Virus record (IMG/VR): IMGVR_UViG_3300043395_001986
Span: 173,308-237,307 of that record
From: a virus
Taxonomy: Duplodnaviria > Heunggongvirae > Uroviricota > Caudoviricetes
Strand: one strand, 5' to 3'
Length of the DNA stretch: 64,000 bases
The translations under genes and the position numbers were made by a program. Positions 11,932 through 53,137 of this stretch are shown in pieces (position 1 is the stretch's first letter; the number at the start of each line of letters is the position of its first letter). The notes below the pieces were generated by a model, which searched no databases, had not been told where the DNA came from, and was given only the letters and a program-made list of their open reading frames with translations.

Positions 11932-11959
11932 AATGGATAGTTGACATATACTTATTAGT

Positions 11960-12604
11960 ATGACAACAATCATAAAAATAAAAAACTATATTGCAGATAA
12001 GATAGCAATATTTTTCCTGGCATTAGTAGGTATATGGATTGCTTTTGCATTATTATTCCAACTTACAATGGTGGGTATACATTTTAGTGGAAATACACAA
12101 TTAGAAACAGATATTGCAAATTGGTTTAGTTGGAAATTTGATGGTACATTCAAAAACTCACCAGAAAATATTTGGTATAATGCAGAGGAACATGTTTGGG
12201 TTGAAAGTGTAGAAAATAAAGTTAAAGTTGGTAAATTAGCTGGAAACAGAAATTTAGCATTCGGTGTTAAAAATGTTTTGGAAGAAGCATTGCAAGAAAA
12301 AGGATTGGATTTAGCACCATCAGCAACACAAAAATTAAAAGTTGAAATTATCTATTTAGATGTTTTAACAACAAAATCAAATATCTCCGTATTTCACAAA
12401 GGAGAAGAGGAAGTAGTCATCCGCCTTAAAGGTACAATTTACAAAGATGGCAAAAAAGACAAAGAGGTTATAGTTGAAGAAAGTTCTGCTGAAATCTCAA
12501 TGTCAACGCTCATAATAGATGAAGGTGGTAAGTTTAACCAGACTTCTTTAAGCAATGCATTGAAGAAAGGTTCTGTTAAACTTATTACTAAACTATTTGA
12601 GTAA
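11960..12604 (+). CDS. Membrane-anchored hypothetical protein
   Basis: Two N-terminal hydrophobic helices (IAIFFLALVGIWIAFALLFQLTMVGI); soluble C-terminal domain. Confidence 0.45.
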   Translation: MTTIIKIKNYIADKIAIFFLALVGIWIAFALLFQLTMVGIHFSGNTQLETDIANWFSWKFDGTFKNSPENIWYNAEEHVWVESVENKVKVGKLAGNRNLAFGVKNVLEEALQEKGLDLAPSATQKLKVEIIYLDVLTTKSNISVFHKGEEEVVIRLKGTIYKDGKKDKEVIVEESSAEISMSTLIIDEGGKFNQTSLSNALKKGSVKLITKLFE

Positions 12605-12606
12605 AT

Positions 12607-14274: not shown

Positions 14275-16932
14275 ATGAAAAAATTATTAGTTACACTATT
14301 CTTATTTATATCATTTTTAGGGTTCGGTCAGCAAATAAATGCACCAGACCCTAAAGAGTTTACTGTCAACACATCCGGACAAGATGCAAGTGGATTTAGT
14401 TTAAGTGGATTTAATTCTACTGCAACTTTACTTTGTGCAATTGGTTTACCCACAGCACCAATCGGAACTACATTTTATTTCTCAACAACATCCGGCGTAA
14501 CTGCATCAACCGGTTACACAATGAGTGGTAACAAAACTCGTATTTCATTCACCGGAACAATGGCTAATATCAATAATGTATTGGCATCAATGAAAATAAA
14601 CACAACGGGAACAGCGGGTGATATTAGTATTTCAGTATCAGCAACTGTCAACCCAACGGGATATTATTACTTACCAACAAACGGACACTTTTATAGACCT
14701 ATGAGTGGGTTTACCGGGGTAACTGCATTTAGTGGAACTTCTGTAACTGCATATAATAATCTTAAAACCTATTGTACTCAACAATCATTCAAAGGACAGA
14801 CTGGCTATCTAATGACAATCACATCATCAGATGAAGATAACTTCGTTGTAAACAATGTACCTGGAAATAATATTATATTTGCACTTACCGATAATGTAAC
14901 CGAAGGTAGATTTGTAATTGATGCAGGACCTGAAAATGGAACTGTCGTAAGAATAAACTCAACAAATCAAACAGGACAATATAATAACTGGGCAAATGGT
15001 GAACCAAACAACTGGGGACCTGGTGAGGATTATGTTGTAACAAAATGGAATGGTTCACAATGGAATGATTTTGGACCCGAAGCAACCGCGTTCCCTGGCG
15101 GATTGGGTGGATATGTAATTGAGTTTGGAACTTGGAACAATCCTGATGACCAAACTTTTAGTGATTTTTACAATAATAGTGTGGTGCATTATAATGGTGT
15201 AAACAATAATTTAAAATCACAATTTACAATTAACTTTGGTGGCAATATAGATGAAACTAAATTTTCAGCAGCATTACATAAAAGAAATGATGCAACATCA
15301 GCTTGGACAGCAAATTCAAATGTGGCATTAAATGGAGTGGGAAGGGTAACTCTATCAACTCAATTAGATACGGCAAAGGTATTTTCATCTGCAATATCAA
15401 TAGCAGCAACAAATGATATGACTCAATATAGTGAAAGTGATATTGGTAAGATATATAAAATGACTATAACGGGCAATACAGGTGGCGGTGCAATTTGGGG
15501 GACAAACATATACACAAACGATTCATATATTCCAAAAGCAGCAGTGCACGCTGGGATTTTAACTGCCGGACAAACAAAAGAAGTTTACATTAAAATAGTT
15601 GAAGGACAAAACGACTATCCATCAACAACACAAAATGGTATAACATCGGATAGTTGGGGAGCATGGGGATTGAGTTATCAATTTGTTGCCAATCCAACTG
15701 CATACAAAGCAACAATTACACCGGGGCAAGTTGAATGGTCTTATACAAATCCAAACGCAAGTTGGTTGAGTGGTAATAGTAGATTGTTAATAGATATGAG
15801 ACAAGTTGGTAGTATTGACCCTACTAAAATTACACATACAAAAATATTTGATGCATATGATGGAGTTATGACATATACTTCGCATGACGCAAATGGTTGG
15901 GCAATATACACAGTCCCATCACCACTAACAAAAATAACTGATGGAACTTCCGCATACAATTCTTATATTAGAAATGTAAATAATTGGAATACGGATTATG
16001 CTTTTCAAAGCACAATCACACTTACACAACAAGGAGCATATAAACAACATAAATTTGTATTTCAAAATTATGATTCGGTTCAATTAAAATCTCTTTATAA
16101 TAGTATTGTGACGGTATCGGATGTGTATTTGGCATTCAAAGAATATTCAGAAGCAGGTGGTATATTTGGTGGTGGAAGTGGAACACAATTTACCTATGGT
16201 ATTCAATTCAAAAATGCGGATGTAGATGGTAATAATGTATTTGATGAAAGAGATTGTTTTAGATTATTACAAAACCTTACAGGTGCAAGAGATTTAGTAA
16301 GTAGTTATGTGTTGGATAGCACTATGAAAATTGTGTTGGACTCTACATACGGAACTATTGGAAAATCTAATTGGCAACAATTTCCATCTTATTTAGGAAA
16401 GGAATATAGTTTTAGTTTATTAGAAGGAAAAACAAACTATTCATACAATTTAGCGGTAACTTGGAAAGGTGATGTAAACTTATCACATTCAGCAACACCG
16501 CCGGCAAATGGTATAACAAATATGTCAGCAAACTTTGGTGAAAGAGTGCAATCAATGGGTGTAAGTGTTCCAATGAATGCAAGTATAATGACTGAATTGA
16601 GTGGGGATAGTGTGTATGTAGAAATCGTATTTAACCCAGGAGATAACAACATAGTAGGAACTCAATTCCAATTAAACTATGATAACTCTTTGTTAAAATA
16701 TAATAAAACCGAATATATCGTAAATGGTTCACCAACTAACTATTCCGCAAACAAAGGAACTTTTATTAATGTGGGTTCTTTGAATACGGATGGTTCACAA
16801 ATTACATCAGCAACTTACAAAGTTCTATTCACTACTACACAAAAATTGAATGGTGGATTGGGATTGGTAAGTGTGGGTAATTCGGAAGCAGTTAGTAAAG
16901 ATGGTAAATCATTGGGAGTAAAAATAAAATAA
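14275..16932 (+). CDS. Secreted modular protein: C-type lectin-like domain + LCCL domain + dockerin-like + cohesin-like modules
   Basis: Signal MKKLLVTLFLFISFLGFGQ; CTLD: GHFYRP...KTYCTQQ...GYLMTITSSDEDNFV...NNWANGEPNNWGPGEDYVVTKWNGSQWNDFG; LCCL: IWGTNIYTNDSYIPKAAVHAGIL; dockerin-like DVDGNNVFDERDCFRLLQNLTG; cohesin-like VYVEIVFNPGDNNIVGTQFQLNYDNSLLKY. Confidence 0.7.
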   Translation: MKKLLVTLFLFISFLGFGQQINAPDPKEFTVNTSGQDASGFSLSGFNSTATLLCAIGLPTAPIGTTFYFSTTSGVTASTGYTMSGNKTRISFTGTMANINNVLASMKINTTGTAGDISISVSATVNPTGYYYLPTNGHFYRPMSGFTGVTAFSGTSVTAYNNLKTYCTQQSFKGQTGYLMTITSSDEDNFVVNNVPGNNIIFALTDNVTEGRFVIDAGPENGTVVRINSTNQTGQYNNWANGEPNNWGPGEDYVVTKWNGSQWNDFGPEATAFPGGLGGYVIEFGTWNNPDDQTFSDFYNNSVVHYNGVNNNLKSQFTINFGGNIDETKFSAALHKRNDATSAWTANSNVALNGVGRVTLSTQLDTAKVFSSAISIAATNDMTQYSESDIGKIYKMTITGNTGGGAIWGTNIYTNDSYIPKAAVHAGILTAGQTKEVYIKIVEGQNDYPSTTQNGITSDSWGAWGLSYQFVANPTAYKATITPGQVEWSYTNPNASWLSGNSRLLIDMRQVGSIDPTKITHTKIFDAYDGVMTYTSHDANGWAIYTVPSPLTKITDGTSAYNSYIRNVNNWNTDYAFQSTITLTQQGAYKQHKFVFQNYDSVQLKSLYNSIVTVSDVYLAFKEYSEAGGIFGGGSGTQFTYGIQFKNADVDGNNVFDERDCFRLLQNLTGARDLVSSYVLDSTMKIVLDSTYGTIGKSNWQQFPSYLGKEYSFSLLEGKTNYSYNLAVTWKGDVNLSHSATPPANGITNMSANFGERVQSMGVSVPMNASIMTELSGDSVYVEIVFNPGDNNIVGTQFQLNYDNSLLKYNKTEYIVNGSPTNYSANKGTFINVGSLNTDGSQITSATYKVLFTTTQKLNGGLGLVSVGNSEAVSKDGKSLGVKIK

Positions 16933-17831
16933 TGAAAAAAATATTATTAATCATATCATTGGTTTTAATTGGATTTGTATCAAACGCACAAATACAAAAA
17001 CCTGATACATTACAATTATCCGCAAAAGAATTATTTGGAGAGAGTGATGATTGGAATGATGTGGGTATATTACAATCCTATATTGATTTCTCAAAAGATG
17101 TTCTTTCATCATCAAATCTTTCGGTTGGTATAATTGGAAAACAGGTATCAACAACACTTAATTTAGGATATAGTAAATCATCACTAAATGGAAAATGGGC
17201 ACATACATTTGCAGCATCAATAAATCCTTTATGGAAATATTATGGAGTGGGATATGGTTTAAGTAGAAATACTGAAAAGAGAACAACAACAATACAAACA
17301 TTTTATTCTACGGATTTTGATTTTCAAAAAGATATTAACCTATCATTTATTGATGTGTTTAGAACTAAAAAATGGGGAACATTTGGATATAGTTTAACTG
17401 CATCAAAAACATTTTGGGGAGAATATGAAAATGTTTCTGCTTGGGAAGGTAAGTTTATTGTTGATGAAAATGGTAATTGGGTAAAAAACATATATCCAAT
17501 AGACCCAGCATCATCTGAACTTACTTATAGAGGTATGGCAATGTACACATATACATTGAAAACAAAAAGAGTGAATATATCACCACAGGTATTTGCAATG
17601 AGTGATATATACAAAGTATTCAAAAATGGTGGCACATCTGATTTTTCGTACTTTGATGATTTCAATTTGGACTTATATTATGGAGTATCTATGGATTGGA
17701 AAATAACTAAAAGATTTGTGTTGAATACCAATGTTAGATATAACACAACTTGGGATACATTAAGTGAATCAGTTGGATATAAAAAGAGTAACCCAATCCT
17801 ATTTATGATAGGAACAAACTTTCAATTTTAA
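16932..17831 (+). CDS. Secreted outer-membrane beta-barrel-like protein (paralog of C-terminal domain of 22856 ORF)
   Basis: Signal MKKILLIISLVLIGFVSNAQ; alternating hydrophobic beta-strand pattern; C-terminal aromatic (..NFQF); ISPQVFAMSD...ITKRF.LNTNVRYN aligns with ISPQVFGMNS...ISKRFGFSFNYRAS of 22856 ORF. Confidence 0.5.
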   Translation: MKKILLIISLVLIGFVSNAQIQKPDTLQLSAKELFGESDDWNDVGILQSYIDFSKDVLSSSNLSVGIIGKQVSTTLNLGYSKSSLNGKWAHTFAASINPLWKYYGVGYGLSRNTEKRTTTIQTFYSTDFDFQKDINLSFIDVFRTKKWGTFGYSLTASKTFWGEYENVSAWEGKFIVDENGNWVKNIYPIDPASSELTYRGMAMYTYTLKTKRVNISPQVFAMSDIYKVFKNGGTSDFSYFDDFNLDLYYGVSMDWKITKRFVLNTNVRYNTTWDTLSESVGYKKSNPILFMIGTNFQF

Positions 17832-20000: not shown

Positions 20001-20696
20001 ATGAAAGAAAAATTGACGATTGTTATTCCGTGTAAAAACGAAAAAGATAACATATATGAGTGTATTTCATTTATTGCAAAACAAGTGGGTTCCGCAGGAC
20101 TTAAAGTTATTATTGCAGATAACTCCGATGAAGGAGATAGTTTAGATTTTTTGTATTTTGTTCAAAGAGATTTTAAATATTGTTTGGATATTCAAATCAT
20201 AGAAGGTGGATTTCCTGCAAAAGCTCGTTTAGAAGGTAGTAAATTGGTTGAAACACCTTATATTCTTTTTTTAGATGCAGATATAATGTTGCAAAATAAA
20301 TTTGTATTAGGTGAATGTTTAGTATACGATACGGATTTAGTGACCGTTCCATTTCAAACCGAAAAAGGATTTAATTGGATATTTAGATTATTTGATATTC
20401 AGCAAAGATTGAGTAATTGGTTGGGAACACCATTTGCAATTGGTGGTTTTCAATTTTGGAAAACAGAAGCATATTGGAAAACTGGTGGATATGATGAAAC
20501 ACATTTATTTGCAGAAGATTATTGGGTATCACAAAAAACAGAGGTAATGAAAATACACAAAACAAAAGGTGTATGGACATCCGCAAGAAGATTTAAAAAT
20601 AAAGGATTTTTTTATATGTTTTGGTTGAGTATAAAATGTTACTTTAATAGAAATAATCCAGAATTTTTCAAAAAACATCACAACTATTGGATATGA
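20001..20696 (+). CDS. Glycosyltransferase family 2
   Basis: MKEKLTIVIPCKNEKDNIYECISFIAKQ (GT2 N-terminus), FLDADIML (DxD). Confidence 0.6.
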   Translation: MKEKLTIVIPCKNEKDNIYECISFIAKQVGSAGLKVIIADNSDEGDSLDFLYFVQRDFKYCLDIQIIEGGFPAKARLEGSKLVETPYILFLDADIMLQNKFVLGECLVYDTDLVTVPFQTEKGFNWIFRLFDIQQRLSNWLGTPFAIGGFQFWKTEAYWKTGGYDETHLFAEDYWVSQKTEVMKIHKTKGVWTSARRFKNKGFFYMFWLSIKCYFNRNNPEFFKKHHNYWI

Positions 20697-28616: not shown

Positions 28617-30731
28617 ATGGGTTGGTATGACTCGTTTAAAACCGGTACATTAGACTATATCGCTAATGGATGGGGTAAAAACAAAAAAGAAAAAAAGAAA
28701 TCAGCTTCATCTTTTTGGGCTGATGAATGGAGTAGGTATGAATATAGCGAACCTACTTATTGGAACGGAACGGACTATGTAACTAAAACTTTTACAAAAG
28801 TTGAAAGTGATACCGTCTCAATGGTTAAACTAAACGCACATCGTAGAGCTATTTCAAATTTCGTAAACATTCTTACAAACAAAAACATTCCTGTTAAGTT
28901 TGCTCGTAAAGGTGACTCTTATACGGATGGTAAAGAAGTAGTGTTATCAGCAGAAGTAAATCCAGAAAAGTTTGATATTGCAGTTGGTTTGGCATTGCAC
29001 GAAGCATCACATATCCAACTTACTGATTTTAAACTATTTCCTTCATATGTTGTTCCTGCGCACTTATTCAATAAATACGCAAAAACAATAGGATTAGATG
29101 TAAGTAGTGGTACGGATGTTCGTATAGCAAACGATACATTATTTGATGTAATTAAATCTCTTACAAATTTTGTAGAAGATAGAAGAATTGACCAATTCAT
29201 ATATGATACTTGTCCAGGTTATAGAGATTATTATCGTGCGTTGTATGAAGAATACTTTTACGATAAAGTGATTGATAAAGGTTTGAAAAGTGATGAATAT
29301 ACTACCGAAGATTTACAATCATATATGTTTCGTATTATCAATATTACAAATGCAAATACTGATTTGGGTAAATTAAAAGGTTTGAAAAAAATCTATCAAT
29401 TATTGGATTTAAAAACCATCAAACGTCTAAAATCAACAAAAGATAGTTTAGATATTGCAGAAAAAATTACCGATATATTGTTAGATAATATTATTATCGA
29501 GCAACAACAAAACCAAAATGGCAAAGGTGATAGTGGTGACCCTGCCGATATTAATGAAGATGGAAATGGTAATGAAGCAGGTGATACTCAAACTGATGAA
29601 ATGGGTGGGGGTAATGCAAATGTTAATGGTATCGGCCAACAATCGAATGATGATAAAGATTATTTATCTAAATCTGCAAAACAAACATTAGATAAGAAAA
29701 TCAAAAATCAAAAAGATTTTGTGAACAATCAAATCAAAAAGAAAGGTTTGACTAAAAAAGAAGAAGATACACTTGAACAAATTGCAAAGAGTGGTACTGA
29801 TATGGAAAGTGTGGGTGGTATGCATACTGACGAAGGACACTATCTTCCTGGTACACAATGTATCGTATCTAAAAAAATGACAGAAGAGTTGATGAAATCG
29901 GATAGTTTCCCTTTTGCAAATTGGAGTAGTTATGACAGTAAATGGTATAGTTTTAACGATAGATTACTGCAAGAAGGTATTGTATTAGGTACTTTGTTAG
30001 GTAAGAGACTACAAATTCGTAGTGAAGAAAGAGAAACTGTCACACCACGTCAAAAGAATGGTAGAATTGATAGAAGATTAGTTGCGGCATTGGGATTTGA
30101 TTATGAAAGTGTATTCAGTACAAAGGAAATTGATAAGTTCAAAAAAGTAATGTTGCATGTTTCTATTGATGGTAGTGGTAGTATGAGTGGCTCTTTATGG
30201 GATAGTGCACTTAAACTTACTATTGCACTTTGTAAAGCAACTACAATGGTATCTAATCTTGAAATTCAAGTTTCTATTAGGGGTACTTGGAATGAAAAAG
30301 CGTATGTTTGTATAGCATATGATAGTAGATTTGATAAGTTTACAAAAGTGAAACAATTATTTCCTGCATTGCACGCCAATGGTACAACACCAGAAGGGTT
30401 ATGTTACGAAGCAATTATGAAATACTTTGTAGAAAGTACCAAAGATATGGAAAGTTATTTTCTAAACATATGTGACGGTGAGCCTAATTTCCAAGATAAG
30501 AATTGTAATTATAGTGGAAAAGCCGCATTGTACCATACTAAAAAAATGGTATCTCTTATTAAAGAGAAAGGTATCAAAGTAATGAGTTATTTCGTTGCCG
30601 ATAGCGGATATGGTTACGGCCGTTCACGTGATAATTTCAAAACAATGTACGGAAGTGACAGTAAATTTATTGACATACAAGCCGTAGTACCTATTTCTAA
30701 AACCTTAAATGAATTGTTCCTAAAAAAATAA
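28617..30731 (+). CDS. CobT-like protein with C-terminal von Willebrand factor A (VWA) domain
   Basis: MIDAS motif VMLHVSIDGSGSMSG (DxSxS); acidic Gly/Asp-rich linker; large N-terminal domain; immediately followed by the partner AAA+ gene. Confidence 0.6.
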   Translation: MGWYDSFKTGTLDYIANGWGKNKKEKKKSASSFWADEWSRYEYSEPTYWNGTDYVTKTFTKVESDTVSMVKLNAHRRAISNFVNILTNKNIPVKFARKGDSYTDGKEVVLSAEVNPEKFDIAVGLALHEASHIQLTDFKLFPSYVVPAHLFNKYAKTIGLDVSSGTDVRIANDTLFDVIKSLTNFVEDRRIDQFIYDTCPGYRDYYRALYEEYFYDKVIDKGLKSDEYTTEDLQSYMFRIINITNANTDLGKLKGLKKIYQLLDLKTIKRLKSTKDSLDIAEKITDILLDNIIIEQQQNQNGKGDSGDPADINEDGNGNEAGDTQTDEMGGGNANVNGIGQQSNDDKDYLSKSAKQTLDKKIKNQKDFVNNQIKKKGLTKKEEDTLEQIAKSGTDMESVGGMHTDEGHYLPGTQCIVSKKMTEELMKSDSFPFANWSSYDSKWYSFNDRLLQEGIVLGTLLGKRLQIRSEERETVTPRQKNGRIDRRLVAALGFDYESVFSTKEIDKFKKVMLHVSIDGSGSMSGSLWDSALKLTIALCKATTMVSNLEIQVSIRGTWNEKAYVCIAYDSRFDKFTKVKQLFPALHANGTTPEGLCYEAIMKYFVESTKDMESYFLNICDGEPNFQDKNCNYSGKAALYHTKKMVSLIKEKGIKVMSYFVADSGYGYGRSRDNFKTMYGSDSKFIDIQAVVPISKTLNELFLKK

Positions 30732-35842: not shown

Positions 35843-36268
35843 ATGGGATATAATCCGTATAGATGGTGGACAAGAGGAACAAAGCAAAGAAATAGACCTC
35901 TACCATATCACTACCCACTTGCACAAAGAATAGGTAACGGAGATTATGACCTACATCCTTTGATGGAAGAATGGATTAGTGAAAAGGAAAAATATAAAGT
36001 AGATGTTCAGAAATGTTGGGATGAGTATAAGGGTGATACTAATGCGGGTAGATGGGAATATATGAGAGATAGAACAAGAATGCAAAATTTAAGAGTTCTA
36101 AAATTAGCAGAAGAGTCACATAAAAAAGAAACAGAATTACTATTTAAATTAAGAGAAGAATTAAAGAAAGCATTTAAGATAGACCTTTGGGATGAAGCCG
36201 TAGAAAATTGTGACGGTGATATAAAAGAGTTCTACGAATATTATGCAGTAAGAAGAAACAATGGATAA
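35843..36268 (+). CDS. Hypothetical protein
   Basis: 141-aa ORF. Confidence 0.4.
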   Translation: MGYNPYRWWTRGTKQRNRPLPYHYPLAQRIGNGDYDLHPLMEEWISEKEKYKVDVQKCWDEYKGDTNAGRWEYMRDRTRMQNLRVLKLAEESHKKETELLFKLREELKKAFKIDLWDEAVENCDGDIKEFYEYYAVRRNNG

Positions 36269-37427
36269 AGTAAAATTTTTTTTAGATGATGCAGGTACGA
36301 TTATAGATTTTAATCTGCTTGATATGCAAAAGCAAGATTTAAGTTGGCAAAATCGTAGAGGTTTATTTGATTTGGTTCTAAATGAAAAATTAGAAGCAGA
36401 TACACCTAAACATTTTTATATATTTTCACGTGCGTTTGATGATTTTGTTGATTATTTTTTAGAAAGTATTTACTTTAAAGTAACATTAGAAAAATTACAA
36501 AAAGGAGAAATAGGTAAAATTGTTTTCTTTTGTGAAGATATGGATTGGTTTTCACATTTACAACCAAAATTAGACGATACTTTACATAAATTAAAAAACG
36601 CATTAGGCGATTACATAGATGTTGTAGAATTATATCTACCATCCTACTCGGAATTTGAGTATGAACCAGTTAAAAGATTTCATTCATTTGGATTTCTTAC
36701 TTTTAGATTGGGTTATTATCTCAAATTCCGATTTTTTAATGTCAATTTTTCGAAAATTGAAAAACACTTTTTCTCTGCAAACAATTATCCGAGAGCAAGT
36801 AGAATGCATTTTTACAAATATCTAAACGATAATGAATTATTTGATTATGGTAATTTTTCTTTCTTTAATTTTGCTAATATTCCGTTAGATGAAAATGGTC
36901 AATTCACATATGACCAAAGAGAAGATGATGGTGGATTAAGAAAGATACCATCTGATTATAAATTTGGTGCAATGAAATTCTATAATGAGAGAGAAGATAA
37001 TTATGTCAATCATGAAATTATCAAAGGATTGAATTTAGATATTATTGAAAAATCAGCCATCGAAATTATTTTTGAAACTGCATACTGCAAGGATGACTTT
37101 GTTCAGTTTAGTGAAAAAACAATTAAAGGTTTATTTTCACCACGTCCTTTTATACTACATTCATATCCATTTTCTTTAAAGAAGCTTAGAAAATTAGGAT
37201 TTAAAACATTCGATTTTCTATTTGATGAAGAATATGATAATATAGTTGACCATGAACAAAGATTGTATTATATATTTCATATGGTAAAACAAATTTCATA
37301 TTTGGATATAAACGAAATAAAAGCAACTTTGGAAAAAAACAAAGATGTATTTTTACACAATAGAGATGTATTAAATACTTTTTATAAAAATGAAGTTGAT
37401 ATAATTAGAAAAGCATTATGCTCGTAA
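36261..37427 (+). CDS. Unknown paralog family 'X' member 2
   Basis: FSEKTIKGLFSPRPFILHSYPFSLKKLRKLGFKTFDFLFDEEYDNIVDHEQRLYYIF; tandem with member 3; paralog of 10930 ORF. Confidence 0.5.
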   Translation: MDKVKFFLDDAGTIIDFNLLDMQKQDLSWQNRRGLFDLVLNEKLEADTPKHFYIFSRAFDDFVDYFLESIYFKVTLEKLQKGEIGKIVFFCEDMDWFSHLQPKLDDTLHKLKNALGDYIDVVELYLPSYSEFEYEPVKRFHSFGFLTFRLGYYLKFRFFNVNFSKIEKHFFSANNYPRASRMHFYKYLNDNELFDYGNFSFFNFANIPLDENGQFTYDQREDDGGLRKIPSDYKFGAMKFYNEREDNYVNHEIIKGLNLDIIEKSAIEIIFETAYCKDDFVQFSEKTIKGLFSPRPFILHSYPFSLKKLRKLGFKTFDFLFDEEYDNIVDHEQRLYYIFHMVKQISYLDINEIKATLEKNKDVFLHNRDVLNTFYKNEVDIIRKALCS

Positions 37428-38554
37428 ATTTTTTAGAAGTTAAAGATACAGAATTTGAAGTTTGTAATGTAAATGTAAACTTTGAAGAATACACCTATAA
37501 TAATAGAGTTGGATTTTTCAAATGGGTACAATCATTTTGTCAGCCTATTTCATTTTTAGCAAGTAATGCAAATGTATGTGTATTGATATATTCAATATCA
37601 TCTGACAAAGCATTGGAAAGTATAAATAAAAACTTTCACCTATTAAACAAATACAAAAAGATAATCATATTTCAGGAGGAACAAGATTTCATATGTTGTT
37701 CGTTGGAAAGATTTAATGCATTGAGAGATGAATTGCATTCTAAATTAAATGAGTTTGAAATAGAAGCTGTTTATTTTGATTTTAAATACAAATCTCAATA
37801 CGATTTGGGATTAAAAAGATACTACCATTTTGGTACTATAAATTATCTATTTGAATTAAATTTCAATTATATAGACAAGTACGATTATAACAGAGAGAAA
37901 ACAAAATACTTTTATAGTGGAAATGCGGCAGAAAGAGCACCTAGATTTCACCTACAAAAATATCTAACAGATAATAATCTTTTACATAATAATCAAGTTT
38001 CATTTTTTATTTATAGTGACAAAAATATCATTGAATATAATGAAAGTGTTGAAGGGTATGGTGAGTTTGATAAAATAAAAGATTTTACTTTTAAGAAAAT
38101 TGAATTTGAAACAACAAGTAATCTATCCGAATATACTCGTCTTTTGGAATTTAATGCATCACCAGATGCTTTAGCGGAAATTTCAATTGAAACGCTATCT
38201 AAATCGTATGGTGATTATGTTATTCAATTTTCAGAAAAAAGTTTCAAACCATTTTTCTATAAAAGACCATTTATGTTATTTGGATATAAAAATAATATAG
38301 AATGTTTGAAAGAATTGGGATATAAAACATTTGATTTTATATTTGATGAGTCGTATTCCGAAATAGATGAACAGCAACAACGATTAAATTCTATATTTAA
38401 AAACATAGGAAACTTTTGTGAAAAACCAATTGAAGAAAATTTAGAACTAATAAATAAACATTCAGATATTTATAACTATAATTTAGATAATTTAAAAAAT
38501 TTTATAGTTACAAATAAAGAAAACTTGCGTTATGAAATTATTAGTTATAGGTGA
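37418..38554 (+). CDS. Unknown paralog family 'X' member 3
   Basis: FSEKSFKPFFYKRPFMLFGYKNNIECLKELGYKTFDFIFDESYSEIDEQQQRLNSIF; near-collinear with member 2. Confidence 0.5.
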   Translation: MLVNFLEVKDTEFEVCNVNVNFEEYTYNNRVGFFKWVQSFCQPISFLASNANVCVLIYSISSDKALESINKNFHLLNKYKKIIIFQEEQDFICCSLERFNALRDELHSKLNEFEIEAVYFDFKYKSQYDLGLKRYYHFGTINYLFELNFNYIDKYDYNREKTKYFYSGNAAERAPRFHLQKYLTDNNLLHNNQVSFFIYSDKNIIEYNESVEGYGEFDKIKDFTFKKIEFETTSNLSEYTRLLEFNASPDALAEISIETLSKSYGDYVIQFSEKSFKPFFYKRPFMLFGYKNNIECLKELGYKTFDFIFDESYSEIDEQQQRLNSIFKNIGNFCEKPIEENLELINKHSDIYNYNLDNLKNFIVTNKENLRYEIISYR

Positions 38555-39263
38555 TAGTTGCACGGATGTATTTGTGTATGGTTATTGTAAACGATTATGT
38601 CCAGAAGGACCCGTTCCTATCTTTGAGCCATCTCGTACAATTACAAATATGGGTATGAGTGGTAATGTAGTAGCTAATCTTAAATCATTAGGAGCTGAGA
38701 AAGTTGAATTGGTTACAAATAGGGAACAGATTACCAAAACAAGATATGTTGAAGAAAAGGCAAATCACTTAATCATTCGTATTGATAGTAATGATAAAGT
38801 AGGTAATTCTTTTGATATTAAAAAAGTACCATTTAATGATTATGATGCGGTTATAGTATCTGATTATGATAAGGGATATTTAACTTATGATGATTTAGAA
38901 AGTATCGCCAAATCACATCCATTAACATTTATAGATACCAAGAAACCTTTAAATGAAAAAATGAAAGGATATACCTTCATAAAAATAAATGAGGTAGAAT
39001 GGGATGCTTGTAAAGGACAGGAGTATTCTAATTGGGAAGATAAATTAATTATAACAATGAGTGAGAGAGGTGCGATGTATAATGGAATAACCTACCCTGT
39101 AAATAATGATATTGAAGTTAGAGACTTAAGCGGTGCAGGTGATACCTTTATGGCAGGTTTAGCAATTAGTTATCTTAAAACAAAAAGTATAGAACGAAGT
39201 ATTCAATTTGCAAATGAATGCGCAACAAAAGTAGTTCAGAAAAAAGGAGTAGTAACATTATGA
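38532..39263 (+). CDS. PfkB-family sugar kinase, RfaE/HldE domain-I-like (D-glycero-beta-D-manno-heptose-7-phosphate kinase-like)
   Basis: N-terminus LLVIGDSCTDVFVYGYCKRLCPEGPVPIFEP...MGMSGNVVANLKSLGA parallels HldE domain I; PfkB motif DLSGAGDTFMAGL. Confidence 0.72.
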   Translation: MKLLVIGDSCTDVFVYGYCKRLCPEGPVPIFEPSRTITNMGMSGNVVANLKSLGAEKVELVTNREQITKTRYVEEKANHLIIRIDSNDKVGNSFDIKKVPFNDYDAVIVSDYDKGYLTYDDLESIAKSHPLTFIDTKKPLNEKMKGYTFIKINEVEWDACKGQEYSNWEDKLIITMSERGAMYNGITYPVNNDIEVRDLSGAGDTFMAGLAISYLKTKSIERSIQFANECATKVVQKKGVVTL

Positions 39264-39682
39264 CAAAGGTATGGGTAAACGGAACATTTGATATTGTCCA
39301 TTTGGGACATATACAAATGCTAAAAAAAGCAGCAGATTTAGGTGATTTTTTAATAGTTGGAGTTGATAGTGATAAAAGAGTTAGTGAATTAAAAGGAGAA
39401 GATAGACCTATTAATAAATTGATAAGTAGAATTACATTATTAGAAGCAATCAAATATGTTGATAGAGTTGTATCATTTGACTCGGATGAACAATTAGAAA
39501 CTTTGATTAAAACAATGAGACCTACAATAATGGTAATAGGAGAAGAATATAGGGATAAAAGAATTATAGGAAAAGAGTATGTAGGTGAAATTGTATATTT
39601 TCCTAAAATGGAAGGGTTTAGTTCAACAAACATTATAAATAAGTTATATGACAGAGAGAAAGTATCTACCAACATTAAGTGA
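39260..39682 (+). CDS. Cytidylyltransferase-fold nucleotidyltransferase, RfaE/HldE domain-II-like (heptose-1-phosphate adenylyltransferase-like)
   Basis: VWVNGTFDIVHLGHIQMLKKAADLGDFLIVGVDSDKRVSELKGEDRPINKLISRITLLEAIKYVDRVVSFDSD and FSSTNIINKL match HldE domain II; ATGA overlap with kinase gene (start moved from track 39218 to ATG 39260). Confidence 0.78.
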   Translation: MTKVWVNGTFDIVHLGHIQMLKKAADLGDFLIVGVDSDKRVSELKGEDRPINKLISRITLLEAIKYVDRVVSFDSDEQLETLIKTMRPTIMVIGEEYRDKRIIGKEYVGEIVYFPKMEGFSSTNIINKLYDREKVSTNIK

Positions 39683-40052
39683 ATTAATTGACAGATTAAG
39701 CATTGTTCAATTAAAAGAAGTGTTTATTCCTGAACACAAAGCGGAATACGCACAGGAAATAGCGGATATAGTAAATGATATTCAAATCCTATTAGATGAA
39801 AATAAAGGTGTAGTGACCGCAGAAACTATTAGAGCAATTGTAGTATTATCTCAAATGAATTTACATATTTGGCATAACGAGTCAAACTATCGTAAGGGAA
39901 TTAAAGATGGTAACAATTTAGAATTAACACATGGTATCAATGGTATAAGAAATACTGCAAAGAATAAGATACAGGAAGTTAATGGTGGCAGAAAAGATTA
40001 TAAAATAGATTGTTTAGCAGCAGAGTTTAAAGATTGGGAAATTAGTTGGTAA
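39648..40052 (+). CDS. Hypothetical protein
   Basis: 134-aa ORF. Confidence 0.4.
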   Translation: MTERKYLPTLSELIDRLSIVQLKEVFIPEHKAEYAQEIADIVNDIQILLDENKGVVTAETIRAIVVLSQMNLHIWHNESNYRKGIKDGNNLELTHGINGIRNTAKNKIQEVNGGRKDYKIDCLAAEFKDWEISW

Positions 40053-40080
40053 TATTTTTTGTAGTATCAAATACTTTTAG

Positions 40081-40088
40081 TACATTTG
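40081..40088 (+). promoter_or_regulatory. Bacteroidota-type -7 promoter element TACATTTG
   Basis: 5 nt upstream of ATG 40093 (near-leaderless). Confidence 0.35.
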
Positions 40089-40092
40089 TATT

Positions 40093-40305
40093 ATGAAAAG
40101 AAAAATGATACAATTAGAAATAGACCAATCTGAATTTTTTAACATATACTACCCGTTAGTAAGTGAATTTCCAGCAGAGTTTAAAGAGTCGATCCCGTTT
40201 TTCAAAAGTCAATTACAAAAACTTGCAGAAGTTGAAGATTATGAAAAATGTGCAAAATTACGGGATTTGATTGAATTAATACAAAATATTGAAGAAAATA
40301 ACTAA
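40093..40305 (+). CDS. Hypothetical small protein
   Basis: 70-aa ORF. Confidence 0.4.
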   Translation: MKRKMIQLEIDQSEFFNIYYPLVSEFPAEFKESIPFFKSQLQKLAEVEDYEKCAKLRDLIELIQNIEENN

Positions 40306-40604
40306 TTGATTATCAATTAGTTGTACAACCCATTGATTATCAACGGCTTATAGAGGTTTCATAAGTCATTGATTTTCAATGGGTTTTTGTATGTCATTGA
40401 TTTTCAATGACTTATGTAACTTATTGATACTGAATTAGTTAGATATTGAATTCATATATTACAAAAAAATATATGTGTAATTCGTTGATTTTCAAGCAAG
40501 AATTTTTAAAAATAGTTGACTCAAAGTGCGCAAGCAATGTATAAAAATCGTATCTTTGTTTTGTTCGGTAAAGAATACCCCAACACATTATAAAAAATCT
40601 TAAT
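40306..40604 (+). promoter_or_regulatory. Non-coding region with array of inverted repeats TTGAT-W3-TCAA (candidate operator/origin)
   Basis: Sites: TTGATTATCAA (x2), GTCATTGATTTTCAATGGG, GTCATTGATTTTCAATGAC (8-bp perfect arms), TTGATTTTCAAG, plus two degenerate copies; ends with TATCTTTG promoter-like box. Confidence 0.5.
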
Positions 40605-41435
40605 ATGAAAAGTATGTTACAATTTACAACAATTAGTTCTGCCAAAAAATTAACTGGTTTAAGTTATTTAGGTAGTGTTGCTTCATCGTCTAAAATTGCC
40701 AAAGGTTTACAATACAACGAAATGACGTATATATTGTATCTTGCTCCGGCTTCTCAAAGTGGATATAATGTTTGTCCAATGAGTACCGAAGAATGTAGAA
40801 CTGCTTGTTTAACCGAGTCTGGCCATAATCGTATTGACGTTAAAAAGAATAACATTAATAAAGCTCGTATCAAAAAGACTAAATTGTTCTTTGAACATAG
40901 AGAGTTCTTTATGAGTTGGTTAGTTGTTGAAATTACAAAAGCTAAAATTGATGCACATATGAAAGGTTATCAATTTTCAGTTCGTATCAATGGTACATCC
41001 GATATTAGTTTAGAAAGTTTCAAATTGAATGGTAAGAATATATTACAAATGTTCCCACTTATTCCTTTCTATGACTATACAAAAGTTGCTAAACGATTTG
41101 ATATGTTAAAGAAATACGATAACTATGATTTAACATATTCATTCAGCGGACATAATATGATACAATGTATTGATTTGTTAAGTAAAGGTAACGGACGTGT
41201 TGCGATGGTATTTGAAGGTAAGGTATTACCAAAAACATTTATGGGGTTTGATGTAATTGATGGTGATGCGTATGATATGAGATACTATGATGAACAAGGT
41301 GTTATTGTAGGATTGAAGTTTAAGAAAGTAAGAAACAAAATTGACACATCAAATAACGCATTCATTATTCCAATGGATAGTAAATTTAGTGTATATGAAA
41401 ACGAAAACAAAAAAGTTAAAGTTGCTGCCAAATAG
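40605..41435 (+). CDS. Hypothetical protein (Cys-cluster CPMSTEECRTAC)
   Basis: 276-aa ORF downstream of repeat region. Confidence 0.45.
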   Translation: MKSMLQFTTISSAKKLTGLSYLGSVASSSKIAKGLQYNEMTYILYLAPASQSGYNVCPMSTEECRTACLTESGHNRIDVKKNNINKARIKKTKLFFEHREFFMSWLVVEITKAKIDAHMKGYQFSVRINGTSDISLESFKLNGKNILQMFPLIPFYDYTKVAKRFDMLKKYDNYDLTYSFSGHNMIQCIDLLSKGNGRVAMVFEGKVLPKTFMGFDVIDGDAYDMRYYDEQGVIVGLKFKKVRNKIDTSNNAFIIPMDSKFSVYENENKKVKVAAK

Positions 41436-41550
41436 TAACAAACGAAATGACCAGGTAGAAGCTGGTGTATATGATGGTAGGTATAAACAAAAGGTTGTAC
41501 CTAACAAAAAGAAAAAAGCCGCTAAATTGTGGGCTCGTAAAAATAAATAA
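41396..41550 (+). CDS. Possible small highly basic peptide
   Basis: MKTKTKKLKLLPNSNKRNDQVEAGVYDGRYKQKVVPNKKKKAAKLWARKNK; only ATG start overlaps upstream gene by 40 nt; uncertain. Confidence 0.25.
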
Positions 41551-41561
41551 AAACAATCTAT

Positions 41562-42011
41562 ATGAATAACAATTTTATAAATGACCCAAACAATGATTTG
41601 GATATGATGAATGAAGATAGTTTAATCAATCAGTATTTCGATGCAATTAAAAAGCACGATTTTTCTTATATGTTTTCGGATGATAATAGATGGTATGAAG
41701 CCGGATATAAAAACCAAAAACATATTACTGAATTGATACATGCTTTGGTTTCTATTTGTAGGCTAGATGCTGAAAGATTGTTAGAAGATAGCTTATCCGA
41801 AGTGACCGAACAATTCGTTGATGGTTTAACACATAGAACAATCAATCAATGGTTTGAGCCGTATTTACCAAAACCTATAAACAAAGAATACTTTAAAGAA
41901 GTGGATGGTATGTATTTCGTAGCTCACCAATTTGATGTTGAAGGTGATGGTTGGGTAAACGAAGAACAACTAGAATTACTATTACACGAATATAATAACG
42001 GAGTAAAATAA
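41562..42011 (+). CDS. Hypothetical acidic protein
   Basis: 149-aa ORF. Confidence 0.4.
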   Translation: MNNNFINDPNNDLDMMNEDSLINQYFDAIKKHDFSYMFSDDNRWYEAGYKNQKHITELIHALVSICRLDAERLLEDSLSEVTEQFVDGLTHRTINQWFEPYLPKPINKEYFKEVDGMYFVAHQFDVEGDGWVNEEQLELLLHEYNNGVK

Positions 42012-43522: not shown

Positions 43523-44164
43523 ATGCCAAATTGGTGCCAAAACACATTGTTCGTTGAAGGAGACTTAAACGCACTACAAGATTTCAAAAAGAGAGTATTA
43601 AAAGTGAATGATAATGATATTGTGGAGTTCACTATGAATGAATTGATGCCGACACCACCTGAATTGCTAGAGCAAACATCACCTGCTATGTGGCGAGGTG
43701 ACAAGGAAGATGAGAAGGGTAGATTAGAATTTGAAAACTATTTAGATAGTTTAGAAGTAAAATATGGTGCAAAAGATTGGTACGAATGGCGTGTGAATAA
43801 TTGGGGAACTAAATGGGATGTATCAAGCGGTAATGTAGATGAAATGGATGGCGAAAGTTTGAATATACACTATGATACAGCATGGGGACCTAATGATGGA
43901 TTTATTAAATTCGCAAGTAAAGTTTACCCATCCTTAAAATTTAGATTATCATATGAAGAACCTGGTATGGGGTTTTGTGGTGTATTAATTTGTAAAGATG
44001 GTGAAATAGATTTTGAAGGACAAGATGATTTACAATGGGTTGATGAATATGATAATATTGTAGAATGGGATAGTGAATTAGAAAGATGGAAAAGAGTATC
44101 GGATAATTCAGTAATTGATGATGAAGACTTTTATCCAAATGAATATAACAAATTTAATTTTTAA
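43523..44164 (+). CDS. Hypothetical protein
   Basis: 213-aa ORF, Trp-rich acidic. Confidence 0.4.
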   Translation: MPNWCQNTLFVEGDLNALQDFKKRVLKVNDNDIVEFTMNELMPTPPELLEQTSPAMWRGDKEDEKGRLEFENYLDSLEVKYGAKDWYEWRVNNWGTKWDVSSGNVDEMDGESLNIHYDTAWGPNDGFIKFASKVYPSLKFRLSYEEPGMGFCGVLICKDGEIDFEGQDDLQWVDEYDNIVEWDSELERWKRVSDNSVIDDEDFYPNEYNKFNF

Positions 44165-46326: not shown

Positions 46327-47430
46327 ATGAAATTAGATACAATATACAAAAAGACAAAGACAGGTGCAACGCAAGAGTGGACAATTGAAGTAGTCGGTAA
46401 CAAATACCGAACACATAGTGGACAAGTTGGTGGAGCAATCACTACAAACGAATGGACGGTAGTATATGGTAAGAATGTAGGTAAGGCAAATGGTACTACG
46501 GATAGTGAGCAGGCTCTTAAAGAAGCTGAAGCTAAACGAACAAAGAAGTTGGAGAGTGGTTACTTTGAGAATATCAAACACATTAACAAAACTCAATACT
46601 TTGAACCAATGTTGGCGAGTAAGTGGGAAGATAGTAAAGATAAAATTACTTACCCAATATACTCACAACCTAAATTGGATGGTATTCGTTGTATAGTGAC
46701 CAAAGATGGTATGTTTAGTAGAAATGGTAAACCAATCATTTCAGCGCCACATATTAGAGAAGGTTTACAATCTCTTTTTGATGAAAATCCTGATTTGATA
46801 TTTGATGGTGAGTTATATGCAGATAAGTTCGCAAATGACTTTAATAAGATTGTATCGTTAGTTAAGAAAAGTAAACCAACTGATGCGGACTTAAAAGAAA
46901 GTAAAAAGAATATTGAGTATCACATTTACGACCTACCATCGGCAAGTGGAACATTTGAAAATAGATTTTTTAATAATCTAATAAAGATGTATGATGCTTT
47001 ACCTAAATATTGTGTGTTGGTTAAAACAATGGTATGTAGGAATGAAAAAGAAGTGAACATTTTATATGAAGATTGTGTAGAAGAAGGATATGAAGGACAG
47101 ATGTTACGGCTGAATAAAGAGTATGAGAATAAAAGAAGTAAGAATTTAATGAAACACAAATCATTCATTGACGAAGAATATACTATCATTGATATTTGTG
47201 AAGGCGAAGGCAATAGAGCAGGAACTGCTGGGTATATGGTATTTGAAACAGCAGATGGTAAACCTTTCAAATCAAATGTAAAAGGAACTTGGGAAGAAAC
47301 TGCGGAAATGTTAAAGAATAGGAAGAAACTAATCGGTAAGGAAGCAACGATTAAATATTTCAATTTAACTCCTGATGGAATACCCCGTTTTCCTTATGTA
47401 ATTAATATTAATAGAAACGAATACGAATAA
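46327..47430 (+). CDS. ATP-dependent DNA ligase
   Basis: Motif I SQPKLDGIRCIV (KxDGxR), motif III IFDGELYAD, motif IV EGYEGQMLR, motif V LMKHKSF; phage-size (367 aa) ligase. Confidence 0.8.
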   Translation: MKLDTIYKKTKTGATQEWTIEVVGNKYRTHSGQVGGAITTNEWTVVYGKNVGKANGTTDSEQALKEAEAKRTKKLESGYFENIKHINKTQYFEPMLASKWEDSKDKITYPIYSQPKLDGIRCIVTKDGMFSRNGKPIISAPHIREGLQSLFDENPDLIFDGELYADKFANDFNKIVSLVKKSKPTDADLKESKKNIEYHIYDLPSASGTFENRFFNNLIKMYDALPKYCVLVKTMVCRNEKEVNILYEDCVEEGYEGQMLRLNKEYENKRSKNLMKHKSFIDEEYTIIDICEGEGNRAGTAGYMVFETADGKPFKSNVKGTWEETAEMLKNRKKLIGKEATIKYFNLTPDGIPRFPYVININRNEYE

Positions 47431-48449: not shown

Positions 48450-48992
48450 ATGAGAAAGAAAATAATATTCATTGATATTGATGGCCCGTTGGCATGGGGA
48501 ACGTGGGGTGATGGTAAAGTGAAGATAAATGAGAATACCTCAAATGAATTTACAATACCTTACGCATGGGATATGGCTGATTGTGAGGCTTTAGCAAAGA
48601 TATGTGATGAAACAAATGCAGAATTAGTGTTAAGTTCTGATTGGAAAATGCATTACACATTAAAACAAATGAGTGATGTGTTTATTGAATATGGTATCTA
48701 TGCAAAACTTATTGATACCACAACCCATATGAATACTAGACAAATGGGGATATGGAATAAAATGAGTAGTCCATCATTAGAGTTTGAGAGAGCACACCAA
48801 ATTGTGAAATGGGCTAAGGATAATAAGATTAGTAACTGGATTGCAATTGATGATATGAAATTAAGTGCTGAGTTCAAATGGATGACACCACGTATCCCAA
48901 TGTGGAGGCATGTACAAGTTGACGGTGATTTTGGATATGGTGGAAGATTAAGAGATAAGATTGATGAATGTATAACAAAATTAAATAGATAA
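48450..48992 (+). CDS. HAD-like hydrolase (5'(3')-deoxyribonucleotidase / GmhB-like candidate)
   Basis: N-terminal IIFIDIDGPLAWG (DxDGxL HAD motif I), later WIAIDDM (motif IV-like). Confidence 0.45.
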   Translation: MRKKIIFIDIDGPLAWGTWGDGKVKINENTSNEFTIPYAWDMADCEALAKICDETNAELVLSSDWKMHYTLKQMSDVFIEYGIYAKLIDTTTHMNTRQMGIWNKMSSPSLEFERAHQIVKWAKDNKISNWIAIDDMKLSAEFKWMTPRIPMWRHVQVDGDFGYGGRLRDKIDECITKLNR

Positions 48993-51976: not shown

Positions 51977-53137
51977 ATGAAAAAATATTTAGCAATAATC
52001 GTAGTGACATTTTTGGTTAGTTGTACAAAGGAAGTTATAATAAATCCAAAACCACAAGAAAATCAAAAACCTATTGTTAATATTATTGATTATAAAGGAT
52101 TGTCTTCAAATCAAATTAATCTTTTATCAAAAGAATATATTGATGTAATGGCATATGATAGCAAAGCAAATTGTTGGTTATATGGTGATTTTGATTTGGA
52201 TGGTATGGAAGATGTAATGGCATTTAGATTGAGTAACAAACCAATCCTATTAAAGAACCAGGGTAATAATGTGTTTTTGAAAGTTACTGATGTATTTGAT
52301 GAAGAGTCTTATTCGGTATGGCCTAGGTCGTGTATATCCGGTGATTTTAATAATGATGGCTATTTAGATGCCGTTATTTTCTCACATGAATTTGAAGGTG
52401 CAAATGGTGGTGAAAATGTTGTACTACTAATTAACCAAAATGGAAAATCTTTTAAATCAAAAATAATAAGTCCTGTAATAAGAGGAACAACAAAAAACTT
52501 TTGGCATTTAGGAAGTTCAGCAGATATAGATAAGGATGGTGATATAGATATATTGATGTCTACTGCGGGGCAACAATACTTAATGATTAATGATGGAAAT
52601 TCTAATTTTAGTTTGTCTACAAATTATGAACAATCTTTACAAAATTCACATCTTATTGGTGGCTTGTTAGAAGATTTGAATAAAGACGGCTATACCGATT
52701 ATTTTACATTTGGTCACGAATTTGCTCAAATTGGTTTACCTAAATATCATAATGGTCCGGCTCAAACAAGAATAATGTGGGGCAACTCAAATAATTCATT
52801 TTTGTTTTTTAATTCCACAACATTTTCAATGGATACTACCGGTTTTGCATTGTTATTGGATGCAATTTGTGTTGACCTAAATAAAGACGGTAAAAACGAA
52901 TTAGTTGTATTGAGAACAGGTGACCCCGATAAATCTGGCTTTTATAAAGGTTATAAAATATCGGTGTATGATGTGCAATCTTTAAAAGATATAACACCCG
53001 AATTGTATGGAAATAATACATACAATACAAATGCAAATTGGATTTTCTTTATTAAAATAATAGACATAAACAATGATGGTAAATTGGATATTGTGGATTG
53101 TAAAAAAAGAAGCAATATAATTTTTTATCAGAAATAA
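51977..53137 (+). CDS. Lipoprotein with FG-GAP/VCBS-type beta-propeller repeats
   Basis: Lipobox FLVSC; six D-x-N/D-x-DG-x-x-D loops: YGDFDLDGMEDVMAF, SGDFNNDGYLDAVIF, SADIDKDGDIDILMS, LEDLNKDGYTDYFTF, ICVDLNKDGKNELVVL, IIDINNDGKLDIVDC. Confidence 0.6.
   Translation: MKKYLAIIVVTFLVSCTKEVIINPKPQENQKPIVNIIDYKGLSSNQINLLSKEYIDVMAYDSKANCWLYGDFDLDGMEDVMAFRLSNKPILLKNQGNNVFLKVTDVFDEESYSVWPRSCISGDFNNDGYLDAVIFSHEFEGANGGENVVLLINQNGKSFKSKIISPVIRGTTKNFWHLGSSADIDKDGDIDILMSTAGQQYLMINDGNSNFSLSTNYEQSLQNSHLIGGLLEDLNKDGYTDYFTFGHEFAQIGLPKYHNGPAQTRIMWGNSNNSFLFFNSTTFSMDTTGFALLLDAICVDLNKDGKNELVVLRTGDPDKSGFYKGYKISVYDVQSLKDITPELYGNNTYNTNANWIFFIKIIDINNDGKLDIVDCKKRSNIIFYQK

Follow-up and report, generated by a model that had tools for sequence, protein, structure and literature searches.

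Sugar-activation genes of the kind described here have been reported from phages before. In P-SSM2, 24 'LPS genes' (LPS, lipopolysaccharide) were described by Sullivan et al. (2005; PMC1079782). For jumbo cyanophages, Iyer et al. (2021; PMC7824862) presented PfkB kinase, HIGH nucleotidyltransferase, cupin isomerase, SDR epimerase and glycosyltransferases as one logic. Active viral enzymes for nucleoside diphosphate heptose (NDP-heptose) were reported by Tang et al. (Science 2024; 10.1126/science.adk7314), with the phosphatase missing from viruses, according to the accounts in PMC11573728 and PMC11461863. The closest described arrangement is the T4-GC 304-308 cassette of the cyanomyoviruses (PSSM2_309-313 in P-SSM2 and SSM2_200-211 in S-SM2), in which a short kinase and a nucleotidyltransferase, usually adjacent and lying within glycan-biosynthesis clusters of large phages, are joined by a small HAD protein (mini-HAD), a cupin and an HldD-like epimerase. 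In bacteria the same two folds form domains I and II of HldE, or the separate polypeptides HldA and HldC. Here we analyze a kinase gene and a nucleotidyltransferase gene that lie next to each other in IMG/VR virus record IMGVR_UViG_3300043395_001986, in a stretch of 64,000 nucleotides (positions 173,308 to 237,307 of the record, called the window below) out of a jumbo phage genome of ~237 kb. This is a further example of a known phage pair, here from a new lineage and accompanied by two unexplained families, the paralogous family-X genes upstream and ORF134, a protein of 134 amino acids, downstream. The two genes, with positions counted in the window, are:

38532..39263, + strand: short PfkB-family kinase of 243 amino acids with an ATG start, HldE domain I / HldA-like, predicted heptose-7-phosphate 1-kinase
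39260..39682, + strand: cytidylyltransferase-fold nucleotidyltransferase of 140 amino acids, HldE domain II / HldC-like, predicted heptose-1-phosphate nucleotidyltransferase

We estimate at about 60% the probability that these genes represent a split HldE, the phage counterpart of the ADP-heptose enzymes HldA and HldC, and that they would yield NDP-heptose for a phage-directed glycan. Both open reading frames (ORFs) were found where the initial annotation had placed them, and all the motifs quoted for them were located: LLVIGD...PEGPVP...GNVVANLKSLGA...GAGDTF in the kinase and NGTFDIVHLGH...LIVGVDSD...LKGEDRPIN...VDRVVSFD in the nucleotidyltransferase. The ATG of the nucleotidyltransferase overlaps the stop codon of the kinase as ATGA. 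A longer form of the nucleotidyltransferase, starting at 39218, is possible, and the 140-residue form was called on 6 independent near-identical metagenomic contigs. Compared with near-identical contigs, the kinase has 13 synonymous and 0 nonsynonymous differences, and its ratio of nonsynonymous to synonymous substitution rates (dN/dS) is ~0.10 relative to a homolog at 86% identity. The nucleotidyltransferase has 7 synonymous and 3 nonsynonymous differences, with a dN/dS of ~0.1. These values indicate purifying selection on both genes.

The similarity of both proteins to the HldE domains, as judged by profile comparison, is far beyond chance. Searches against HldE, HldA/HldC and TagD gave HldE domains I and II as the top curated families for the two proteins, in line with the initial annotation. 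The kinase matched Pfam PfkB (PF00294) with E 1.8e-16 and 60.8 bits, above the gathering score of 25.8. Its top model among 18,950 NCBIfam models was TIGR02198 rfaE_dom_I (E 1.3e-35, 123.1 bits), 86 bits ahead of the next unrelated kinase model, ribokinase (36.5 bits), and its top PDB match was B. cenocepacia HldA (4e84). In the alignment with E. coli HldE and with HldA 4e84, the kinase keeps the N-terminal signature GD..D.Y...R..PE(G/A)PVP, as well as SDYxKG, IDxK, the N..E pair and GAGDT, the last of which is invariant in the alignment of the kinase family. The protein is also smaller than its bacterial counterpart, having 243 residues where HldE domain I has ~315. Four deletions were found relative to E. 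coli HldE, the largest of ~25-30 residues, corresponding to the beta-alpha unit after SLGA. A total of 7,654 metagenomic proteins belong to the short-form family at E <=1e-5, the top 120 spanning 191-249 amino acids. The 243-247-residue form recurs across thousands of them, and 55 columns are invariant across homologs 40-86% identical to the window protein. By these comparisons the short form is typical of a very large metagenomic family, and the predicted heptose-kinase scaffold of 243 residues reveals which parts of a PfkB anomeric kinase are dispensable.

The nucleotidyltransferase matched Pfam CTP_transf_like (PF01467) with E 8.7e-21 and 75 bits, above the cut-off of 21, and its top NCBIfam model was TIGR02199 rfaE_dom_II (E 3.1e-36, 124.4 bits). 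The TagD model TIGR01518 scored 79 bits, under its own cut-off of 165.4 and 45 bits behind rfaE_dom_II. TagD and ECT share the small HIGH-type fold and the length of the phage enzyme. However, TagD does not have the KGxxRPxN...R motif, which is common to the window protein, HldE and HldC (5x9q): in the alignment, LKGEDRPINKLISR of the window protein stands opposite LKGDSRPVNPLEQR (HldE) and GKGDDRPINVQEDR (HldC), while TagD has LQKQKKAYHSYEHR. The HxGH motif of the HIGH-type fold is present as HLGH. A further motif, (F/L)XXGXSTT, is given as the hallmark of heptose nucleotidyltransferases in PMC11573728 and PMC11461863, where Tang et al. are also said to link an Arg at position 5 (the STTR5 form) to promiscuity for cytidine and uridine triphosphates (CTP/UTP). 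The corresponding C-terminal motif of the phage enzyme, KMEGFSST, fits only partly, keeping the G, the S and the final T, with K at position 1, F at 5 and S at 7. It is not of the STTR5 form, Phe standing in place of the Arg. The nucleoside triphosphate (NTP) used by the enzyme is therefore not predictable from its sequence. The concept is the same as for the viral enzymes of Tang et al., as described in those two papers: a viral heptose kinase and nucleotidyltransferase without the phosphatase. With respect to bacterial HldE, both folds are present in the HldE order, as separate polypeptides as in HldA and HldC, and they share PE(A/G)PVP, SDYxKG, IDxK and GAGDT on the kinase side and HxGH and KGxxRPxN on the nucleotidyltransferase side. 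The phage proteins differ in the shortened kinase, in KMEGFSST and in scores under the equivalog cut-offs.

The initial annotation regarded such genes as unusual cargo for a phage, and our survey does not agree. The kinase was found by tblastn in 35 of 50,697 deposited phage records, nearly all of them T4-like cyanomyoviruses (S-SM2, P-TIM68, P-SSM2, P-SSM5, S-CAM1/3, S-SSM7, S-T4), at 33-45% identity. The highest value is that to SSM2_200 of S-SM2 (45%). Annotations of the pair in these cyanophages go back to 2005, a 'putative carbohydrate kinase' adjoining a 'putative nucleotidyltransferase' or a 'bifunctional heptose 7-phosphate kinase/heptose 1-phosphate adenyltransferase'. At least 582 stretches in IMG/VR carry the kinase, and the pair has its own PHROG families, 8133 for the kinase (E 8.6e-80, residues 1-242 of 243 covered) and 7878 for the nucleotidyltransferase (E 7.3e-43, residues 1-131). 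With full-length matches to both profiles and adjacent genes, the window pair fits the cyanomyovirus T4-GC 304/305 pair, to which the orthologous proteins are 39-45% (kinase) and 44-47% (nucleotidyltransferase) identical. The two lineages differ in what surrounds the pair. The mini-HAD, cupin and HldD-like epimerase genes of the cyanophage cassette are all missing from the window, whose own additions, ORF134 and the family-X pair, do not occur either in any deposited phage genome or in the cyanophage loci. The hosts differ as well, being cyanobacteria for the cyanophage cassette and probably Flavobacteriales for the window phage. Megablast of window positions 36000-42000 against deposited phages gave 0 matches, so there is no annotated close relative among them. 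The range of the phage NDP-heptose cassette, known from marine cyanomyoviruses, is thus widened to a jumbo-phage lineage that is abundant and uncultured and probably infects Flavobacteriales. In the region seen, this lineage carries only the kinase and nucleotidyltransferase steps. None of these findings overturns current understanding.

Evidence on the substrate comes mainly from the partners of the pair in related phages. The product of T4-GC 308, annotated as a nucleotide-sugar epimerase, has as its top model HldD (TIGR02197), the ADP-glycero-manno-heptose 6-epimerase, with 207-210 bits versus 46-53 for GalE. T4-GC 306, annotated as a phosphoheptose isomerase of 103-114 amino acids, starts with DIDGTIC, a HAD phosphatase motif, and its nearest models are a capsule-biosynthesis phosphatase and HAD-IIIA. 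We therefore rejected it as a SIS isomerase, and the cyanophage 'phosphoheptose isomerase' genes are, from motif and model matches, mini-HAD phosphatases. They lie at 14975-15286 and 16616-16945 of the S-SM2 locus (L001) and at 9719-10063 of the P-SSM2 locus (L002). A phosphatase in the cassette fits the order of kinase, phosphatase and nucleotidyltransferase that is peculiar to the heptose route. T4-GC 307, annotated as a cysteine dioxygenase, is a small cupin that weakly resembles D-lyxose isomerase and the WbuC cupins. It retains 42-47% identity from the cyanophages to the clade of the window phage, and it adjoins the nucleotidyltransferase in the closest relatives of the window. Cupins of this type were located at 16905-17282 (L001), 10044-10400 (L002), 10380-10751 (L135) and 9576-10001 (L139). 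Neighbors were counted within 10 kb on either side of the short kinase in 80 IMG/VR loci centred on it:

nucleotidyltransferase: within 10 kb of the kinase in 55 of 80 loci, directly adjacent in 31
cupin: within 10 kb of the kinase in 43 of 80 loci
mini-HAD: within 10 kb of the kinase in 34 of 80 loci
SDR epimerase: within 10 kb of the kinase in 24 of 80 loci

Neither a SIS-type GmhA nor an E. coli-type GmhB was found in any of these 80 loci, and the SIS-type GmhA was absent from all 160 viral loci. Because of this absence and of the weak similarity to D-lyxose isomerase, the T4-GC 307 cupin is a candidate replacement isomerase. Its occurrence in 34 of 80 loci makes the mini-HAD relevant to the published view that no heptose phosphatase is present in viruses. 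Three independent cassette members, the HldD-like epimerase, the mini-HAD and the cupin, point to the ADP-heptose route as far as their family matches go. A heptose substrate for the window enzymes is supported by the fact that the pair travels with these three genes in related phages.

In the window itself the rest of the pathway was not detected. About 50 ORFs of the 64 kb were scanned with Pfam, and all those of at least 40 amino acids were searched with sensitive profiles. The initial annotation had reported GmhA as absent, which holds for the window: the Pfam scans gave no SIS domain, and phmmer --max with E. coli GmhA gave a best E of 0.3. There is no GmhB-type phosphatase (best E of 0.72 with E. 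coli GmhB against the window ORFs), and the cyanophage mini-HAD profile reached only E 0.25. No SDR domain was present in the scanned ORFs and the epimerase profile gave a best E of 0.17, so an HldD-like SDR was not found; nor was a GT9 heptosyltransferase domain among them. Mini-HAD, cupin and HldD-like epimerase genes were likewise not found by tblastn and sensitive hmmsearch over the window, and clade-specific cupin queries were also empty. In contrast to the bacterial ADP-heptose system, there is thus no GmhA, GmhB, HldD or GT9 near the phage pair. Two HAD-type phosphatases had been put forward as GmhB-like partners. The one at 48450-48992 was rejected as a GmhB candidate, being a 'Swiss Army Knife' RNA repair HAD (PF18143 HAD_SAK_2). 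Given this match, and a relative in which it abuts a DNA ligase gene, we assign it to nucleic-acid repair. The other, at 7653-8576, is a generic HAD-IA/DUF2608 protein with DxDxT and no similarity to GmhB; a partner role for it is conceivable but unsupported. An ATP-dependent DNA ligase is encoded at 46327-47430, ~1 kb from the HAD_SAK_2 gene, and the two are directly adjacent in the related locus L013 (2610-4244). They are probably a nucleic-acid end-healing and sealing pair.

From these data the following route may be proposed. Sedoheptulose-7-phosphate would be converted to heptose-7-phosphate by an isomerase of the host or of the rest of the phage genome, and the kinase would phosphorylate it to heptose-1,7-bisphosphate. 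The 7-phosphate would then be removed by a phosphatase of the host or of the phage genome outside the window. An outside source for the isomerase and the 7-phosphatase is suggested because neither is encoded in the 64 kb. The nucleotidyltransferase would join heptose 1-phosphate and an NTP to give NDP-heptose. Phage transferases, either the family-X pair, the GT2 and GT4 enzymes of the window or both, would place the product on a surface glycan of the infected cell or of the virion. ORF134 may act on the nucleotide-sugar or on its transfer.

Several observations weigh against this assignment. The kinase score is about one third of the TIGR02198 equivalog cut-off of 345 bits, and the nucleotidyltransferase also falls short of the 181.5 bits set for TIGR02199. 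Since both proteins score well below the curated cut-offs, 'HldE' denotes the top match for both of them, not a proven identity. The interpretation given in the initial annotation is thus supported in part. About 70 residues of the HldE domain are missing from the kinase, including a beta-alpha unit. The pairwise PDB scores of the nucleotidyltransferase are close together (ECT 83, HldC 68 and TagD 66 bits). Its closest relatives (83-86% identity, on contigs up to 237,724 bp) place the gene beside the cupin and not beside the kinase, and on IMGVR_UViG_3300035682_000012 the kinase and nucleotidyltransferase genes are 30.6 kb apart. Finally, the window is without GmhA, GmhB, cupin, mini-HAD, HldD-like epimerase and GT9 heptosyltransferase. 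The layouts in the relatives indicate that the lineage retains both enzymes but shuffles them, the tight, fusion-like arrangement of the window being one variant among several.

The short kinase with its low score and the lack of an isomerase or phosphatase partner in the window would also fit a two-step salvage of another sugar, with anomeric phosphorylation of a free or differently phosphorylated sugar followed by direct activation. Such a route would need no isomerase or phosphatase, and its product would not be glycero-manno-heptose. The 13 of 80 viral loci that have the kinase and the nucleotidyltransferase without other cassette members are in agreement with it. However, the HldE-specific motifs are intact, orthologous cassettes contain the HldD-like epimerase and the phosphatase, and no other sugar-kinase model comes near the rfaE_dom_I score, so that we consider salvage of another sugar unlikely. 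The separation of the two genes in the nearest relatives, with the nucleotidyltransferase beside a cupin, raises another possibility, namely that their adjacency is incidental and they are not a pathway pair. In that case the nucleotidyltransferase would activate a phospho-alcohol in the manner of TagD and ECT, as its similar PDB scores would allow, or be cupin-linked, and the kinase would have a separate role with ORF134 and family X. Four related loci (L009-L012) have the kinase and ORF134 with no nucleotidyltransferase within 10 kb. This explanation seems to us distinctly improbable, given that the relatives retain both genes on one genome, that the genes are immediate neighbors in 31 of 80 diverse viral loci and overlap as ATGA in the window, and that the nucleotidyltransferase favors rfaE_dom_II over TagD and has the KGxxRPxN of the HldE/HldC type. 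Decay of a captured hldE into functionless remnants, which the truncated kinase and the scores below cut-offs might suggest, is contradicted by the substitution pattern of both genes, by the 55 invariant columns and by the recurrence of the 243-247-residue form, and is very improbable.

The reading as a heptose kinase and nucleotidyltransferase also has to be considered with the neighboring genes. Four more genes, all overlapping their neighbors, complete the block:

35843..36268, + strand: ORF of 141 amino acids, heads the overlapping gene block; its membership of the block is tentative
36261..37427, + strand: family-X paralog 1 (X1), 388 amino acids, candidate glycosyltransferase, unproven
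37418..38554, + strand: family-X paralog 2 (X2), 378 amino acids, same family as 36261-37427
39648..40052, + strand: ORF134, highly conserved four-helix-bundle protein of 134 amino acids, DUF4254/DUF7783-like, overlaps the nucleotidyltransferase by 35 nucleotides

The order is thus the 141-residue ORF, X1, X2, kinase, nucleotidyltransferase and ORF134, with successive overlaps of 8, 10, 23, 4 and 35 nucleotides, and the overlapping genes are probably co-translated. No + strand terminator was found between the genes of the block, and the promoter scan was at chance level (59 found versus 58.8 expected). The order is retained in near-identical contigs from six samples. The 141-residue ORF has no Pfam or PHROG match, and homologs at 35% identity occur less than 5 kb from the kinase in L009 and L011. 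In the four loci L009-L012, from more distant members of the phage group, a homolog of ORF134 (70-78% identity) directly adjoins the kinase (64-67%), and family-X pairs lie within 5 kb. In L009, genes for a heme oxygenase and a ferredoxin-dependent bilin reductase (11705-12951) directly follow the kinase region, and the Fe-S assembly genes NifU_N and Fe-S_biosyn were found further on. Auxiliary genes for bilins and Fe-S clusters are usually discussed for cyanophages; the L009 lineage seems to infect other hosts.

Family X has no Pfam, NCBIfam or PHROG match. X1 and X2 are paralogs with 27% identity, and homologs are nearly always paired near the kinase or ORF134 (L009, L011, L017, L032, L120 and L128), so the adjacent paralogs noted in the initial annotation are indeed companions of the kinase in related phages. 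The residues N174, R181, E285-K286, P296, D326, R334 and N367 are conserved. X1 shows 5 synonymous and 0 nonsynonymous differences, and the dN/dS of X2 is 0.06-0.11. A word-indexed homology search gave 5 matches. The ORF at 43523-44164 was rejected as a member of the family: it was matched by jackhmmer for one query only, in late iterations, which is profile drift. A profile of 18 family-X sequences gave only noise against PDB sequences. The AlphaFold2 (AF2) model, built from an alignment of 6 sequences, is poor (predicted local distance difference test, pLDDT, of 51), and Foldseek found nothing significant (best E 0.018, probability 0.21), GT-B enzymes heading the non-significant list. That family X encodes glycosyltransferases is a plausible guess, not an established finding.

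Of the 80 viral loci, 23 have ORF134 no more than 10 kb from the kinase, and in 8 the two are directly adjacent. Its AF2 model (pLDDT 88) is a four-helix bundle, and 12 polar residues are invariant. The protein scores 16.7 bits on DUF7783, and distant relatives score 16.6-20.7 bits on DUF4254, in both cases below the gathering score of 27, so that a remote relationship to DUF4254/DUF7783 is suggestive. Domains matching the fold occur in giant-virus proteins that carry glycosyltransferase and GNAT acetyltransferase annotations (Foldseek probability 1.00, template modeling (TM) score 0.59-0.64, 20-24% identity), and divergent relatives adjoin SDR epimerases/dehydratases in 3 of 4 informative contexts. 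Proximity to the kinase, the giant-virus fold matches and the SDR neighbors are three lines that tie ORF134 to nucleotide-sugar chemistry. ORF134 as a substitute for the mini-HAD or the cupin was rejected, as it co-occurs with both. The larger proposal that X1, X2, kinase, nucleotidyltransferase and ORF134 form a self-contained, non-canonical heptose-glycan module, in which ORF134 would be a new NDP-sugar enzyme or specificity factor and family X would be new heptosyltransferases for the virion or host surface, is improbable in our judgment. Both are unannotated families genomically tied to nucleotide-sugar enzymes, and they are candidates for new glycan-building activities. One relative of ORF134, P0336 (323 amino acids), has N-terminal NUMOD3 and HNH homing-endonuclease domains, which suggests that a homing endonuclease is inserted at, or fused to, an ORF134-type gene in some genomes. 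On the phage-like contig L216 (630-848 and 4694-4912), a divergent homolog immediately follows a Tad2-like anti-defence gene, has an Acb2/Tad1-like gene in its vicinity, and is itself followed at once by an SDR epimerase gene.

A chromosomal gene of Flavobacteriales is 80-89% identical to ORF134 of the window, and about 11 metagenome-assembled or single-cell genomes of this order have a copy with 80-86% identity. It occupies a fixed slot in the order thrS, infC, rpmI, rplT, ORF134, yqeY, TPR and recA, and it is as conserved there as IF-3 or ThrRS. These copies were observed at L109 (8001-8405), L097, L099, L102, L104, L106-L108, L110, L112 and L131. DNA similarity between the window and these loci is limited to the ORF134 gene, ~400 nucleotides. 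The GC content is 0.28-0.31 in the Flavobacteriales genomes versus 0.29 in the window. Based on the chromosomal copy and the GC match, the window phage probably infects Flavobacteriales, and exchange of ORF134 between host and phage is suggested.

The Pfam scans also detected two GT4 and four GT2 glycosyltransferases in the window, an abundance that speaks for the heptose-glycan reading of the kinase and nucleotidyltransferase. Both GT4 genes and three of the GT2 genes lie within the first 6 kb (322-5995), and another GT2 gene is at 20001-20696. Together these two segments look like a second glycan-building region, apart from the kinase block. After the run of glycosyltransferases come four ORFs that match no family (8573-11931); the window is at its most AT-rich there (GC 0.235). 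A protein of 885 amino acids (14275-16932) has an LCCL domain and weak similarity to C-type lectins, and one of 386 amino acids (51977-53137) has FG-GAP repeats; both may be virion proteins that serve in adhesion or bind carbohydrates. Downstream of the kinase block, the palindrome TTGATnnTCAA is present in five copies within 190 nucleotides (40306-40495), between an ORF with a UVR motif and a GP88-family gene. In the whole window it has 11 strand-matches versus 2.6 expected, and 0 of 100 shuffles had as many. A further copy was found at 28482, just upstream of the ORF 28617-30731, and the repeats look like a repeated operator or promoter element.

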